Below are positions 6,929 to 47,387 of a stretch of DNA of 64,000 nucleotides, piece after piece. Within the stretch, counting starts at the first letter, position 1; each line of letters begins with the position of its first letter. The DNA is from Candidatus Saccharimonadales bacterium. GTDB taxonomy: Bacteria; Patescibacteriota; Saccharimonadia; Saccharimonadales; UBA4665. The notes under the pieces are model-generated. The model was not told the origin of the DNA. It ran no database searches and worked only from the letters and a program-made list of their open reading frames with translations. A program made the translations under genes and the position numbers. The DNA is taken from contig DATIHR010000022.1 in assembly GCA_035480575.1 (NCBI GenBank), forward strand, positions 750-64,749, written 5' to 3'.

Positions 6929-8506
6929 ATGTTAAAATGGGGCATGCCTCGCAAAGAATCGATAGACATACGCAAACTCCGATACGTGTTGTACGCCCGC
7001 AAATCAACTGAAGATGAAGCGCGTCAGGTGCGTTCAGTCGGTGACCAGATAAAGGACTGCCAGAAGCTGGCAAAAGATCTTGGGCTGAACGTCGTCGAGA
7101 CAATAAAAGAGACCAAATCTGCCAAGCGTCCGGATCAACGACCTCTTTTCTCGAAGATGATTAAAGACATTGAGGCGAAGAAATACGATGCCATCCTTTG
7201 CTGGCACCCTGACAGGTTGTGTCGAAACATGCTTGAGGGTGGCCGCATTATCAATATGTTGGACGAGAACACGTTAAAAGATATTCGTTTCAACAGCCAC
7301 CAATTTAGCAATGATGCAAACGGCAAAATGCTCCTGGGTATGCTTTTTGTTTTCTCGAAGCAATATTCGGACGACCTATCTGATAAAGTAAATCGCGGTA
7401 TAAGCGGTAATCTGGAAGAAGGTAAATCGGCGGGTGCGCCTAAGCTGGGATACACGCGCAGCGAGGTGACTGGCTATTACGAACCTAACGAATTTTTTGG
7501 TGTAATCGAAGAGGCCTGGCGTAGAAGGCTTACCGGCGAGAGCTTAGATGCAATAACTGCCTACTTACATGAACAGAATGTCCATAGGGTGACGAAGAAT
7601 AAGAAGAAACAGCGAATTCTAAGACCAGGCAAAAGTACCGTCGGTTATATGTTCAGCGACCCATTCTACTACGGCATTTTGATACAGGCTAGCCAAACTG
7701 TTGATTTATGCGAGCTTACACCTTTCAAGAAGATCGTCACCAAAGAGATGTACGAACAGGTGCAGGCCCTGGGTTACGGCAGGACAAAAAGTCATGCCGA
7801 CAAGAAACGGACAACGTTTTTCCCGTTGCGTGGTTTTGTATATTGCGGAGTTTGTAATAGCGATAAATACATGAAGGTGGGCAAAAATAAGACTGGCGGC
7901 GGCACGTACGTCCTTACTTACAGGTGTGACAATAAAGAGTGCACGCGTCAGGTGAAGTCTTTTAGAGCCAAGTACATATTTGAATCGATTTATAAAACAC
8001 TGGATAAGTTTGAACTAGGCGATGAGGCTTATGGCCGCTATAGTGCGAAGATTGACGGCCGCACTGATGAGAAGATAGTTGAAATCAAACAAGCCATTCA
8101 CAGTAAGCGTGGAGTCTTGAGCCACATTAAAAGTGAGCTTAGTGAGCGGGCGTTGGCTGTTGGGCGTATGGAAAAGAAGTCGCCAGCATATCAGCCGAAC
8201 ATGGATAAGCTCGAACAGCTTGCCGATCAACAGGCCGATCTTGAAGAAGAAATTCGCAAGCTGGATGAAAAAGTGGCAAATCCGCGCCAAATAAAGGTAG
8301 GCAGGGAAGAGTTTTTGAACCTGGTGAAAACAGCGTCACAACGGATGAAAGCTGGCTCTGCAGTCGAAAAAGACGTACTTTGTCGCATTTTGTTTTTGAA
8401 CCTACGCGTAGATAACGAAAAAGTGGCCTCCTACCTCTGGCGCGAACCGTTCGCGACGTTGGTAAAGGCCACTGAAATCCAGGATGGTGGGGGTGGATGG
8501 ACTTGA
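6929..8506 (+). CDS. Large serine recombinase/integrase
   Basis: YARKSTE catalytic motif, resolvase domain, recombinase domain, Zn ribbon (CGVC...YRCDNKEC) and coiled coil; 525 aa. Confidence 0.92.
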   Translation: MLKWGMPRKESIDIRKLRYVLYARKSTEDEARQVRSVGDQIKDCQKLAKDLGLNVVETIKETKSAKRPDQRPLFSKMIKDIEAKKYDAILCWHPDRLCRNMLEGGRIINMLDENTLKDIRFNSHQFSNDANGKMLLGMLFVFSKQYSDDLSDKVNRGISGNLEEGKSAGAPKLGYTRSEVTGYYEPNEFFGVIEEAWRRRLTGESLDAITAYLHEQNVHRVTKNKKKQRILRPGKSTVGYMFSDPFYYGILIQASQTVDLCELTPFKKIVTKEMYEQVQALGYGRTKSHADKKRTTFFPLRGFVYCGVCNSDKYMKVGKNKTGGGTYVLTYRCDNKECTRQVKSFRAKYIFESIYKTLDKFELGDEAYGRYSAKIDGRTDEKIVEIKQAIHSKRGVLSHIKSELSERALAVGRMEKKSPAYQPNMDKLEQLADQQADLEEEIRKLDEKVANPRQIKVGREEFLNLVKTASQRMKAGSAVEKDVLCRILFLNLRVDNEKVASYLWREPFATLVKATEIQDGGGGWT

Positions 8507-8560
8507 ACCATCGACCAAAGGATTATGAGTCCTCTGCTCTAACCACTGAGCTACACCCCC
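8485..8560 (-). tRNA. tRNA-Ile2 (CAU, lysidine type), CCA encoded
   Basis: GGGGGTGTAGCTCAGTGGTTAGAGCAGAGGACTCATAATCCTTTGGTCGATGGTTCAAGTCCATCCACCCCCACCA. Ile2 assigned by resemblance and by elimination, since fMet and elongator Met are found elsewhere in the window. Confidence 0.85.
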
Positions 8561-16304: not shown

Positions 16305-16337
16305 AACAAGGCACCCACTTTCGTGGGTGTTTTGTTT
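16305..16337 (+). terminator. Intrinsic terminator of tRNA-fMet
   Basis: GCACCCAC-TTTC-GTGGGTGT followed by a T-rich tract. Confidence 0.8.
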
Positions 16338-16473
16338 TGGTTTTGAGAGTCGGGCTCAAACCTGCGGTAGCATGTATCACAGACACAGCCTGATATAGTT
16401 AAGCTAATGGCCAATAAAGTGAAAGCCCCGCTTGGTGCAAGTCTTGTAGTATTGTCGTCAATTTTAATATTTT

Positions 16474-20476: not shown

Positions 20477-20638
20477 AGAACCCATTTCAAATCTCCCCCC
20501 AGCTACAAAACCACCTGACGGTGCCATATTTCAGTTTTGTTCGTCACCGTAACTACAGTTACGCTTCCTCGCAAGAACTAAAATCTGGCACTCGCCAGCT
20601 GCTTTTTCGCTATCGCGGGGAGATCTGAAATGGGTTCT
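20477..20638. repeat. 162-bp rod-like imperfect palindrome
   Basis: 22-bp terminal inverted repeats (21/22), inner inverted repeat 20521-20537/20575-20591 (14/17) and apical CGTAAC-TACA-GTTACG. Confidence 0.85.
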
Positions 20639-20989: not shown

Positions 20990-21022
20990 AGTAAATGCCC
21001 CACCGCAGGTGGGGTTTTTACT
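20990..21022 (+). terminator. Intrinsic terminator of tRNA-Met
   Basis: CCCCACC-GCA-GGTGGGG followed by TTTTT. Confidence 0.85.
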
Positions 21023-21065
21023 TGGTCAGAGGCCAGGTTAGTTTAATAAGTTATAGTATTTTATT

Positions 21066-45550: not shown

Positions 45551-45591
45551 TATGGCACCTGGGGATTGCCAGGCGGGTTGTTGCAGGAAAG

Positions 45592-45855
45592 TTAGTAATG
45601 AAACCGGCAGCCGATAACCTGGATTTCGGTATCGGTAACCGCATACACGAGCCTGTTCTTTTCGTCTACGCGTCTTGACCAAAATCCGGAATAGTTTTCC
45701 TTGAGGGGCTCCGGCTTGCCTATTCCATTAAATGGATCCCGCCCAGTATCGGCGATGAGCTTGTTGATTTTTTTAAGTGTCTTTTTATCTTGGTTGGCCC
45801 AGAATTGGTAATCATCCCACCCTTGGGGTGTAAACAATATATTTCGCTGTGCCAT
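45592..45855 (-). CDS. yoeB: Txe/YoeB toxin
   Basis: GIGKPEPLK, GFWSRRVDEKNRLVY and C-terminal RFHY. Confidence 0.95.
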   Translation of the reverse strand: MAQRNILFTPQGWDDYQFWANQDKKTLKKINKLIADTGRDPFNGIGKPEPLKENYSGFWSRRVDEKNRLVYAVTDTEIQVIGCRFHY

Positions 45856-45856
45856 C

Positions 45857-46111
45857 TTAGTTTTCTACAAGGTTGTGCTTTTCCAGTTCGCCTTTACGTA
45901 GTGCAGCGATGGAATGTTCTAGGTGTTTGCGGTTAGCGGGACTGCTGTTTAAATAATCGGTTTCTGCTTTGGAATTGTATTCATCCAGAGTCATGACCAC
46001 CACTGTTTGGCCGTCGTTGCGGGTAATAAGTAATACGTCTCGGTCCTCGATAACTTTATCGAAATAACCCTTAGTGTCTTTGCGAAATTTAGAAATAGAT
46101 GTGACGTTCAT
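45857..46111 (-). CDS. yefM: Phd/YefM antitoxin
   Basis: Phd fold; ETDYLNSSPANRKHL. Confidence 0.92.
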   Translation of the reverse strand: MNVTSISKFRKDTKGYFDKVIEDRDVLLITRNDGQTVVVMTLDEYNSKAETDYLNSSPANRKHLEHSIAALRKGELEKHNLVEN

Positions 46112-46150
46112 AGTACTTTATATAGTACTTTAGGGCGTACGTTGTGTCAA
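46111..46150 (-). promoter_or_regulatory. yefM-yoeB promoter and operator
   Basis: TTGACA-17-TACTAT; two TAAAGTACTA direct repeats 12 bp apart, each with a palindromic AGTACT core. Confidence 0.8.
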
Positions 46151-46360
46151 TGGTCGTAGAAGTGGAATAGTGGCCTTTGGCCTTTTCCGTTGTGGCGTGC
46201 TCGGTGCAGCAATTTAGCACTGATCGTAGACAAGCATTCTTACCTCGCTTTGCTCGGATAGCTCGCTCACGGCTAAAGCCTACCGCTTGGCCAAGCTAAG
46301 AAAACTCACCATGCCACTGGCATGGTTCGACCTACGGTTCGAATCCCACTGGCGCGACCA
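46151..46360. repeat. Palindrome-rich element ending in an inverted tRNA 3'-end copy
   Basis: GGTTCGAATCCCACTGGCGCGACCA at 46336-46360; imperfect complement at 46151-46169; internal small hairpins. Confidence 0.7.
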
Positions 46361-46395
46361 ATAAAAAAGCCCCAGCTTTGCTGAGGCGTTTTTAT
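46361..46395. terminator. Bidirectional-type terminator downstream of tRNA-Lys
   Basis: ATAAAAAAGCCCCAGC-TTT-GCTGAGGCGTTTTTAT. Confidence 0.8.
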
Positions 46396-46472
46396 TGGAG
46401 GGCCCAGTGGGATTCGAACCCACGACACGCGGCTTAAAAGGCCGCTGCTCTAACCTGCTGAGCTATGGGCCC
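46396..46472 (-). tRNA. tRNA-Lys (UUU)
   Basis: GGGCCCATAGCTCAGCAGGTTAGAGCAGCGGCCTTTTAAGCCGCGTGTCGTGGGTTCGAATCCCACTGGGCCCTCCA; TTGACT-17-GATAAT promoter. Confidence 0.95.
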
Positions 46473-46558
46473 ATTCTTGACGAAGCCAAAAATGGCGAGC
46501 AAATAACAGGGTACATTATCCTAAAAACAGAGGCAAAAGTCAATCCGTGTTGGTTTTT

Positions 46559-46945
46559 TTATGACTTCTTAATTTTCTCTAGCAGCCACGCAGTGGCGGC
46601 GTCGCGGTCTTCGAAATACCGTACTCGGTAACTTTGGCCGACTGCCCGTAGCATGAGGTTGGTGCCAAAGCGCATGATAAGGCCTTTGCCAAGCATGGCC
46701 GCGCGGTCGTAGTCCAGCCGTTTGGCTAGCTCCACAACTAGGTTGCGCCCGTCGGCACCAACGGCACCAAGCCCCAGCAGATTGTCTAATATAAGGGCGG
46801 GTTTGCCCGTTGCCCTTTGGCTGGTTATGAGTGCGTCGACCTCGCGGCCCATGAGTTCAATAGAGGTTGCGGTTTGCGGTCCGGAGGTTACGATTTCTAT
46901 AATTCCATCTTCGTTTAGGATTACTTTATTTTGCAGCATACCCAT
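46559..46945 (-). CDS. SpoIIAA/STAS-SEC14-like protein
   Basis: LILDNL..LG...RAAMLG...VRYFEDRDAATAWL. Confidence 0.7.
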   Translation of the reverse strand: MGMLQNKVILNEDGIIEIVTSGPQTATSIELMGREVDALITSQRATGKPALILDNLLGLGAVGADGRNLVVELAKRLDYDRAAMLGKGLIMRFGTNLMLRAVGQSYRVRYFEDRDAATAWLLEKIKKS

Positions 46946-47006
46946 ATAGTAAAAGTCATTGCAGTGGGTCGTCTAGTCGGAAACATTTTGGTATGATGGG
47001 CGATAT

Positions 47007-47339
47007 ATGGGTGGTGCCTCATACGACCTAGACTTTGTAACCAGCAGCCTTACCTGGGGCGAGGGGTTATACACAGAATTTGGGTATGACAAATCGGCCC
47101 CCACTAACAGCGTTGATTGGTGGACCGACCACATACATCCTAACGATGCCATGATATTAAATTATGCCATGGACAAGTTGCTTGATCCGTATGCGCAAAA
47201 CTGGCTTGTCGAGTACCGGTTTAGAAAAGCAGATAACAGCTATGTAGTAGTCGAAGACCAGGCAACGATACACCGCGATAGTGTCGGTAAGGCGATACGG
47301 CTAACGGGTACGCTGACACCACTTGCAACCTATTCGTGA
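47007..47339 (+). CDS. Stand-alone PAS_3 domain protein
   Basis: WWTDHIHPND, EYRFRKADNSYVVVEDQA and IRLTGT. Confidence 0.85.
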   Translation: MGGASYDLDFVTSSLTWGEGLYTEFGYDKSAPTNSVDWWTDHIHPNDAMILNYAMDKLLDPYAQNWLVEYRFRKADNSYVVVEDQATIHRDSVGKAIRLTGTLTPLATYS

Positions 47340-47387
47340 TAGGGTGTTTTTGGTTTAAACACGGCGAGCTGTTGCTACAATGCTCGC

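Follow-up and report, generated by a model that had tools for sequence, protein, structure and literature searches.

How does a transfer RNA (tRNA) gene come to face an exact inverted copy of part of its own 3′ half? The question is raised by a locus in 64,000 nucleotides of a Candidatus Saccharimonadales bacterium (assembly GCA_035480575.1, contig DATIHR010000022.1, positions 750 to 64,749), a stretch referred to here as the window. In this locus, an inverted copy of the T-arm of tRNA-Lys(UUU) lies across the terminator of the gene, and a yefM-yoeB toxin-antitoxin (TA) pair follows beyond it. The reading favored here, with a probability of about 0.6, is that the T-arm copy is the tRNA-proximal arm of a non-coding mini-cassette of about 210 bp, called unit X, which was inserted site-specifically at the 3′ end of tRNA-Lys(UUU). 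This reading rests on the recurrence of such units behind the same tRNA in other genomes and on their absence from the closest relatives. Judged from the sequence, the feature is probably a little-known variant of tRNA-targeted integration, of which the window holds a decayed example. Loci outside the window are designated by L numbers.

The palindrome at the 3′ end of tRNA-Lys

The palindrome and its surroundings consist of the following features.
46396-46472, minus strand: tRNA-Lys(UUU) with encoded CCA (ARAGORN; Rfam RF00005, 73.8 bits); the 25 nt at its 3′ end make up one arm of the palindrome.
46515-46543, minus strand: tRNA-Lys promoter TTGACT-17-GATAAT (consensus scan), with homologous promoters upstream of tRNA-Lys in L003, L019, and L022.
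46358-46398, no strand assigned: shared terminator hairpin CCAATAAAAA...TTTTTATTGG, whose stem begins at CCA on both sides.
46336-46360, plus strand: inverted tRNA-3′-like arm (T-loop, 5+7+1 nt, CCA), 21/25 to tRNA-Lys with a perfect 17-nt run.

As the original prediction had stated, the 17/17 inverted copy of the T-arm is exact: GGTTCGAATCCCACTGG at 46336-46352 of the plus strand is the reverse complement of 46404-46420 inside tRNA-Lys(UUU). The extension of this pairing to an 85-nt hairpin holds as well, with 41-nt arms (46336-46376 and 46380-46420) that are 85% complementary, are separated by 3 nt, and take in the terminator strands CCAATAAAAA and TTTTTATTGG. This palindrome is the longest local inverted repeat of the 64-kb window, where the filter used lets through only one further pair. 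By chance, ~4e-4 perfect 17-mer inverted repeats spaced within 100 nt would be expected per window (64000 x 100 x 4^-17), and the 21/25 agreement of the 25-mer arm with the tRNA-Lys 3′ end compares with 0 of 20,000 random 25-mers reaching even 16/25. In the terminator stem, the tRNA strand has a G.U pair and the plus strand a C.A mismatch; a homologous terminator is found 3′ of tRNA-Lys in L001, L005, L009, and L020.

The inverted arm has the 7-nt T-loop of a tRNA 3′ half, and its acceptor part reads CGCGA, with discriminator A, where the tRNA has GCCCU. The different acceptor of the copy (...CGCGACCA) and the absence of a 5′ tRNA half, both pointed out earlier, can be read directly from the sequence, and ARAGORN and Rfam agree. 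The plus-strand arm also lacks the 5′ strand of the T-stem, so that direct reading allows 2/5 pairs. No tRNA, transfer-messenger RNA (tmRNA), or other family was found on the plus strand by ARAGORN, at Rfam gathering thresholds, or in an Rfam search at E<=10 on 45800-46700. Two plus-strand candidates were rejected. In the case of a tRNA gene, the cloverleaf is incomplete, and ARAGORN and RF00005 call the minus-strand tRNA-Lys only; in the case of a tmRNA (ssrA), there is no Rfam match at E<=10 and none by ARAGORN, and the acceptor would be U1.G72...U3.G70.

The arm could instead be the 3′ remnant of a second, convergent tRNA gene (ending GCGCGACCA) that once used the same terminator and was deprived of its 5′ part by an insertion. 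The exact geometry of a tRNA 3′ half, the ACCA end, and a G72-A73-CCA reminiscent of tRNA-Pro agree with this origin, as does the resemblance of an attR to a tRNA 3′ fragment beside a terminator. However, the other tRNA ending TGGCGCGACCA that had been envisaged did not materialize: searched as the 25-mer GGTTCGAATCCCACTGGCGCGACCA, it gave 0 matches in 185,579 species genomes. Moreover, no such gene occupies that place in any locus examined, and the arm is part of a unit that recurs with differing acceptor sequences. A lost convergent tRNA is thus considered very improbable.

The folding of the transcripts bears on a regulatory role of the arm. A read-through RNA is predicted to form the 85-nt hairpin at the expense of the cloverleaf (-77.1 kcal/mol, z = -6.9), whereas the terminated transcript is predicted to keep the cloverleaf plus the terminator (-59.5 kcal/mol). 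In read-through RNA, the arm would pair with the T-arm and the acceptor 3′ strand of tRNA-Lys, would block or redirect its maturation, and may insulate yefM-yoeB from transcription of the tRNA. Such pairing is thermodynamically possible on the predicted energies, and a second terminator-like hairpin, H2 (described below), comes next on the same strand. Nevertheless, a strong terminator precedes the arm, the tRNA would already be folded by the time the arm is transcribed, the arm is missing in the closest relatives, and the arms of L001 and L005 match the tRNA poorly; a regulatory device is considered very unlikely. In the RNA runs searched, neither the locus nor unit X was present.

Unit X in the window

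The unit to which the inverted arm belongs, as its tRNA-proximal end, comprises the following features.
46151-46360, no strand assigned: unit X, a non-coding palindrome-rich module of ~210 bp between the terminator and the yefM promoter.
46261-46346, no strand assigned: best-conserved core of X, 78% identical to L003 and ~90% to contigs of other organisms (soil runs X1-X4).
46308-46326, no strand assigned: hairpin H2, ACCATGCC-ACT-GGCATGGT, whose top GCCACTGGC is conserved and whose stem varies by copy.
46151-46168, minus strand: degenerate direct copy of the tRNA-Lys 3′ end, ATTCCACTTCTACGACCA, 11/18, at the distal boundary of X.

No conserved open reading frame (ORF) is present in unit X, and no further copy of X occurs within the 64-kb window. 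At its distal end, the degenerate mirror that had been described at 46151-46168 (TGGTCGTAGAAGTGGAAT) was recovered with 11/18 agreement to the complement of the last 18 nt of the tRNA, and it is indeed flush with the yefM -35, adjoining TTGACA at 46150-46145. Taken as an inverted terminal repeat with the other arm, this mirror reaches 15/25. On the tRNA strand, H2 is followed by GAGTTTTCTT, which gives it the appearance of a terminator, and variants of H2 are found in L003, in L009-B, and in one soil contig. It has also been observed that the top of H2, GCC-ACT-GGC, is kept while the outer stem is wholly different among the window, L003, L009, and the soil contig. The centre of H2, CCACTGG, repeats the palindromic centre at the junction of the T-stem and the acceptor of tRNA-Lys (CCCACTGGG).

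Two lines of evidence for a function of the unit itself were tried and set aside. Covariation was not accepted as proof of RNA structure, as a palindrome generated by template switching is self-complementary from the outset, and as the two strands do not differ in how well they fold. A conserved small ORF was rejected because the 33-aa frame of L001 is not retained in L005, as seen by direct reading of the sequences.

Units of the same layout behind tRNA-Lys in other genomes

A search with the exact tRNA-Lys 73-mer yielded 5 genomic and 11 metagenomic loci. Directly behind the identical 73-mer, a unit is present in five further distinct loci of Saccharimonadales (L001, L003, L005, L009/L013, and L010). 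The units share one layout, which consists of a terminator flush with CCA, an inverted tRNA-3′-like arm, a hairpin-rich body, and a directly repeated copy of the final 10-19 nt of the tRNA, and they are homologous or analogous to X (two copies in L001; L003, L005, L009, and L010). The distal direct repeat agrees with the tRNA end at 19/19 in L005 and in the second L009 repeat, at 18/19 in L001, and at 15/19 in L003, as compared with 11/18 in the window. The X of the window is homologous to the L003 unit via the block GGCCAAGC.A.GAAAACTC and the hairpin GCCACTGGC. Its core is also found, at ~90% identity, in contigs of several co-occurring soil organisms, in which the flanks differ at both ends of the module.

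The most informative locus is L001. The sequence 3′ of its direct repeat aligns with the native terminator of the unit-free loci L006, L007, L014, L024, and L028, which identifies the L001 unit as an insert of ~195 bp that separates CCA from the old terminator. Another copy of the unit, evidently a recent duplicate at 99.4% identity, lies 3 kb away (L001 6906-7115), in the loop of an intrinsic-terminator-like hairpin CATATGTT...AACATATTTTTT; this loop provides a 9-nt match to the tRNA-Lys end, that is, a pseudo-core. Since the match extends over 9 nt only, the crossover can be placed within GGNCCTCCA. In L009, two units stand in tandem, followed by one gene and then by a third, partial unit at the contig end.

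A further observation concerns the units of L001 (3849-4033) and L005 (7594-7783), which have in common a perfect TATAAT (TGCATATAAT) on the strand opposite the tRNA. It lies ~65 nt upstream of the CCA of the arm and would yield a short RNA running into the shared terminator.

These data raise the possibility that X encodes a small RNA on the plus strand whose 3′ end resembles that of a tRNA; its transcription would proceed to the shared terminator, and its maturation would follow that of tRNA precursors. The arm spacing, T-loop(7)+5+7+1+CCA, is kept in the window, L003, L009-B′, and one soil relative, with mostly ACCA ends; the 5′ and 3′ ends of X are able to pair; the fold z-scores range from -3.4 to -5.4; and the TATAAT of L001 and L005 would supply a promoter. 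On the other hand, the T-stem forms 2/5 pairs in the window and is similarly poor in L003 and L009, no Rfam family is matched at E<=10, and no conserved promoter exists in the subfamily of the window and L003. The 5′ pairing partner in the window sits in the yefM -35 and is not homologous to that of L003. The terminator has its C.A mismatch on the plus strand and the better G.U pair on the tRNA strand. In addition, both strands of X fold equally well (z = -3.4 for plus and -3.7 for minus), as expected for palindromic DNA. An RNA gene of this kind is accordingly considered unlikely.

The yefM-yoeB pair and the tRNA-Lys cassette arrays

The TA pair of the window and its flanks are made up as follows.
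45857-46111, minus strand: yefM antitoxin (Pfam PF02604, E = 1e-15), with 74% amino acid identity to the L001 copy.
45592-45855, minus strand: yoeB toxin (Pfam PF06769, E = 6e-40), with nearest homologs <=80% identical.
46112-46150, minus strand: yefM promoter TTGACA-17-TACTAT with two AGTACT-core operator repeats; the same GAGTACTATATAAAGTACTATG is present in L034-37.
45553-45591, minus strand: probable decayed cassette-end repeat CTTTCCTGCAACAAC..., weak and judged by eye.

The Pfam scores bear out the yefM and yoeB assignments of the original prediction. With an adjacent PhdYeFM antitoxin and YoeB, and with tandem ATAGTACTTTA operator repeats over the -10, the pair is a type II TA system of the YefM-YoeB family. 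The operator consists of two AGTACT/GTAC-core repeats with a 12-bp pitch, which overlap the -10 and the start codon (window 46112-46133). It is conserved in L034 225-250 and upstream of yefM in L038 and L039, where the cassette flanks are unrelated.

In L034-37, a 0.7-kb yefM-yoeB cassette lies between 34-nt direct repeats, TTTCAGTTGCAACAGCATCTACGATGGCCCTCCA and TTTCGGTGGCTACACCGTTCACGATGGCCCTCCA, that end in GGCCCTCCA. The L038 contig opens within a tRNA 3′ end (...GGGCCCTCCA), with the start of the yefM promoter 14 nt past its CCA; in L001, yefM-yoeB stands between the two unit copies. The 34-nt repeat, TTTCRGTTGCRAYAG-N-ACGATGGCCCTCCA, closes cassettes in L001, L004, L008, L014, and L034-37, and it ends in the last nine bases of tRNA-Lys. 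These findings support the view of yefM-yoeB as a cassette that is linked to the 3′ end of tRNA-Lys. In the window, a similarity to the first half of this 34-nt repeat (TTTCAGTTGCAACAGC...GGCCCTCCA) is seen in CTTTCCTGCAACAAC..., where the core is unrecognizable. A distal att core 3′ of yoeB, AATCCCCAGGTGCC, was considered and rejected, as its agreement of ~10/15 is by estimate not significant.

The short end of tRNA-Lys recurs in a strongly directional manner. In L001-L016, GG[CT]CCTCCA was found 11 times downstream of tRNA-Lys, always in the orientation of the tRNA, and 0 times inverted or upstream, as compared with a chance expectation of ~0.24 in ~31 kb. Most of the 11 cores (GGYCCTCCA) close small gene cassettes. 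The cargo of these arrays includes TA pairs (L004, L015), a C39-like peptidase, an insertion sequence (IS) transposase, a DUF2283 pair, and a hydrolase-like gene, and on this sequence evidence TA pairs appear to be a typical, recurring cargo. It was also observed that L004 (+2858 to +3434) and L015 (+1865 to +2596), in positions given as offsets from the tRNA, carry near-identical RelB/RelE-like pairs, each followed by a repeat ending GG(T/C)CCTCCA.

The hairpin had originally been interpreted as an att-like remnant of an element that delivered yefM-yoeB. The att context of this interpretation is upheld by the same units and direct repeats in relatives, whereas the delivery of the TA pair by the hairpin unit is not. 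A single element made up of X and the TA pair was rejected, because no TA gene lies in the 220-260 nt available downstream of X in L003 and L005, and because X is missing where the TA pair is found in L034-38. For the same reason, the two are regarded as neighboring units of one array. It also counts against a single element that the TA genes of the window and of L001 have only 68% DNA identity, with the similarity limited to the coding sequence.

Relatives without the unit

Close relatives were chosen by RimK protein identity (91-95%), and eight distinct ones were obtained. The tRNA-Lys locus is visible in five of the eight, in every case without X and without yefM-yoeB, and neither was found in the sequence available from any of the eight. 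Unit-free tRNA-Lys genes, which represent empty sites, are thus known from L019-L030 (RimK 91-95% identical) and from L006, L007, L012, and L014. The comparison with relatives lacking the TA pair, which had been proposed as a check, shows that both X and yefM-yoeB are absent from the nearest relatives, and the region is highly variable rather than invariant, so that the invariance named beforehand as speaking against an insertion is not what is seen.

The gene order in the RimK relatives is RimK, DUF192, a 165-aa membrane protein, a variable interval, and ComEC. The interval between the membrane protein and ComEC is hypervariable, with 3-5 kb and different genes in each lineage (window 45551-47387 as compared with L019-L033). 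Within it, tRNA-Lys is found in both orientations and in two sequence variants, with a T-stem of GTGGG/CCCAC or CTGGG/CCCAG. More distant loci have RimK, DUF192, the membrane protein, and tRNA-Lys, all on one strand. The block of tRNA-Lys, X, and yefM-yoeB in the window is inverted in place as compared with the order of the distant loci, L019, and L003.

An origin without any mobile element is another alternative. In it, replication would have switched template at the hairpin of the terminator and produced an inverted copy of the tRNA end, so that the palindrome grew in place (quasi-palindrome extension), with the remainder of X as an unrelated spacer. In agreement with this, 3/4 of the tRNA genes of the window have a terminator stem starting at CCA, an inverted tRNA-like arm occurs at the same offset behind tRNA-fMet (16/25), and L003 and the soil relatives have a sequence unlike the 17/17 stretch, as expected of a templated patch. 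However, the native terminators of unit-free loci have no inverted arm, and the whole unit, arm included, is common to other genomes, closed by a direct repeat, and duplicated at 99.4% in L001, where copy 2, away from a tRNA, already points against growth in place. Moreover, the discriminator A and a 5-nt non-tRNA block stand between two perfect stretches, a pattern that a single fold-back would not leave. Growth in place is therefore held to be distinctly unlikely.

Proposed origin of the locus and the points that weigh against it

In the favored reading of a site-specific insertion, the tRNA-Lys 3′ end, with its core GGYCCTCCA, would serve as the anchor for the serial insertion of small integrase-less units. 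Each insertion would rebuild the tRNA end and shift the older units downstream, and each unit would end in a copy of the tRNA end. The window would then contain two such units, X and the adjoining yefM-yoeB cassette. X would supply its own terminator, starting exactly at CCA, together with the inverted tRNA-3′-like arm; tRNA end, terminator, and arm would make up the 85-nt palindrome as an attL-type junction. The insertion was presumably mediated by a recombinase encoded by an unlinked gene, and both units in this genome seem to be old and now immobile.

Classical att duplication gives rise to direct repeats and not to inverted ones. As classical integration does not produce an inverted arm, the arm is best understood as a property of the unit. 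The perfect 17/17 stretch may be secondary and due to gene conversion or template switching between the arms of the palindrome, since L003 and the soil relatives carry another sequence at the position of ATCCCACTGG.

Several points weigh against this reading. The inverted arm is not explained by classical integration, and the closest relatives all lack the GGYCCTCCA repeat. In the window, the distal repeat of X agrees at 11/18 only and the repeat after yoeB is coreless; with the repeats of the window so decayed, their att status is deduced by homology with other genomes. The secondary homogenization rests on three comparators, namely L003 and two soil consensus ends of moderate agreement. Furthermore, the arms keep the exact geometry of a tRNA and mostly end in G-ACCA, whereas tRNA-Lys ends in U-CCA, and the acceptor of the arm varies by copy; the arm is therefore not a plain fold-back copy of the tRNA. 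It follows that the arms are neither simple fold-back copies nor simple scars, and they may have a role at the level of RNA or of folded DNA. Finally, no recombinase gene was seen in the arrays examined (L001, L004, L008, L009, L014, and L015), and no excised or empty variant of the window locus and no joints were found in soil runs, the locus being unchanged in the DNA runs.

A bolder interpretation can be put forward tentatively, although it is considered fairly unlikely. X-type units could be an undescribed class of protein-less mini-cassettes of the candidate phyla radiation (CPR), with a hairpin core and with an inverted and a direct mimic of the 3′ end of the adjoining tRNA. The tRNA end, the terminator, and the arm would fold, as single-stranded DNA or RNA, into a recombination or targeting site. 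Such units would move in trans and seed integron-like arrays of gene cassettes, yefM-yoeB being an example, at tRNA genes by means of non-integron machinery. In the literature consulted, no account of such arrays or modules in Saccharibacteria was found, which is a weak negative.

Recombinases and comparison with known systems

Neither X nor the TA cassette contains an integrase, and no tyrosine recombinase was recognized among ten candidate ORFs of the window. The window does encode a large serine recombinase of 525 aa (Resolvase, Recombinase, and Zn ribbon; 6929-8506), whose 3′ end and that of a tRNA(CAU) gene on the opposite strand (8485-8560) overlap. It is a candidate for the class of enzyme that could insert at tRNA ends, and nothing more. 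A phage or plasmid origin of the units is unsupported: a scan of viral contigs with four patterns (X core, L001/L005 unit end, tRNA-Lys 3′ end, and cassette repeat) gave no match or chance matches in unrelated coding DNA.

Among the closest known counterparts of the arrays are the ssrA islands of Dehalococcoides, which are arranged in tandem with a 20-bp direct repeat and a conserved motif upstream of each repeat (McMurdie et al. 2011, PMC3146451). These islands measure 10-30 kb, and in many of them a serine recombinase of ~540 aa belongs to an integration module located beside attL (PMC3146451). As in Dehalococcoides, the units described here stand in tandem behind one stable-RNA gene, are bounded by a direct repeat of its 3′ end, and lie in a hypervariable region. 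The motif upstream of each Dehalococcoides repeat cannot be aligned with the gene; the counterparts here are the GGYCCTCCA core and the 34-nt repeat. Such tandem units, with a repeat of the 3′ end of the gene and an upstream motif, are found in the relatives, and the window has two decayed ones. In contrast to Dehalococcoides, the units are of 0.2-1.5 kb and have a tRNA as their target, their arrays show no recombinase, and some of them are purely non-coding with an inverted arm.

A second comparison is with cis-mobilizable elements (CIMEs), which keep attL and attR, lack integration and transfer genes, and accrete in tandem at target 3′ ends including that of tRNA-Lys (Pavlovic et al. 2004; PMC5704250). 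The L001 and L005 units likewise keep both ends and have no such genes, and in the window the attR is decayed. However, CIMEs are kb-size decayed integrative and conjugative or integrative and mobilizable elements (ICEs/IMEs), whereas X measures ~210 bp, contributes its own terminator and an inverted tRNA-like arm, and is one of a family that has its core conserved. X gives the impression of an independent unit and not of a deletion remnant, and the two 99.4% identical copies of L001 are indirect evidence that such units may be mobilized.

Integrons share with these arrays the rows of gene-sized cassettes, mostly promoter-bearing or promoter-less, each closed by a recombination-site repeat, and the imperfect palindromic sites that fold. 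TA cassettes are a common cargo of chromosomal integrons. Unlike integrons, the stretches examined show no IntI, the 34-nt repeat is no attC-type palindrome and contains no attC dyad, and the anchor is a tRNA 3′ end in place of attI. The absence of IntI near tRNA-Lys applies to all loci examined, with Pfam searches on selected ORFs only.

Quasi-palindrome correction is a Ripley-type templated mutation that proceeds by intramolecular template switching. It would explain a perfect 17-nt patch complementary to a constrained arm in an imperfect hairpin-centred palindrome, but it is a mutational process and no element, and it leaves the direct repeats, the shared unit, and the duplicate copy unexplained. 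Lastly, miniature inverted-repeat transposable elements (MITEs), repetitive extragenic palindromes and bacterial interspersed mosaic elements (REP/BIME), and Correia-type repeats are, like X, short, non-coding, hairpin-rich, and intergenic, with inverted ends, and they sometimes act as terminators. The ends of X differ from them in mimicking a tRNA 3′ end, and the insertion takes place at the end of a tRNA with a target repeat of 10-19 nt.

Significance

To our knowledge, very little has been established about gene gain and loss in the tiny genomes of host-dependent Saccharibacteria and other CPR bacteria. The present locus and its relatives point to the tRNA-Lys 3′ end as a gene-collecting site, at which tiny integrase-less units, including TA pairs and non-coding palindromic modules, are stacked. 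If the process is confirmed and the enzyme is found, it would be a compact form of gene capture with an integron-like outcome reached with other parts, and the palindromic modules would then represent recombination or terminator cassettes of a new kind. In annotation, the reading would account for the orphan tRNA 3′ fragments and the long palindromes that lie beside tRNA genes in these genomes.

Palindromes at other tRNA genes of the window

The terminators of tRNA-fMet (initiator formylmethionine tRNA) and tRNA-Met (16305-16362 and 20990-21030) are palindromes whose stem runs from the encoded CCA (CCA...TGG), as at tRNA-Lys. The inverted tRNA-3′-like 25-mer that follows tRNA-fMet ends in ACCA; it agrees at 16/25 with its own tRNA and at 14/25 with two of the other three tRNAs, and it is thus generically tRNA-like. 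Furthermore, ~275 nt separate tRNA-Met from a rod-like palindrome of 162 bp (20477-20638) on its upstream side. This palindrome, whose left arm (20484-20508) repeats the tRNA-Met 3′ end in direct orientation at 20/25, looks like an orphan unit of the X type.

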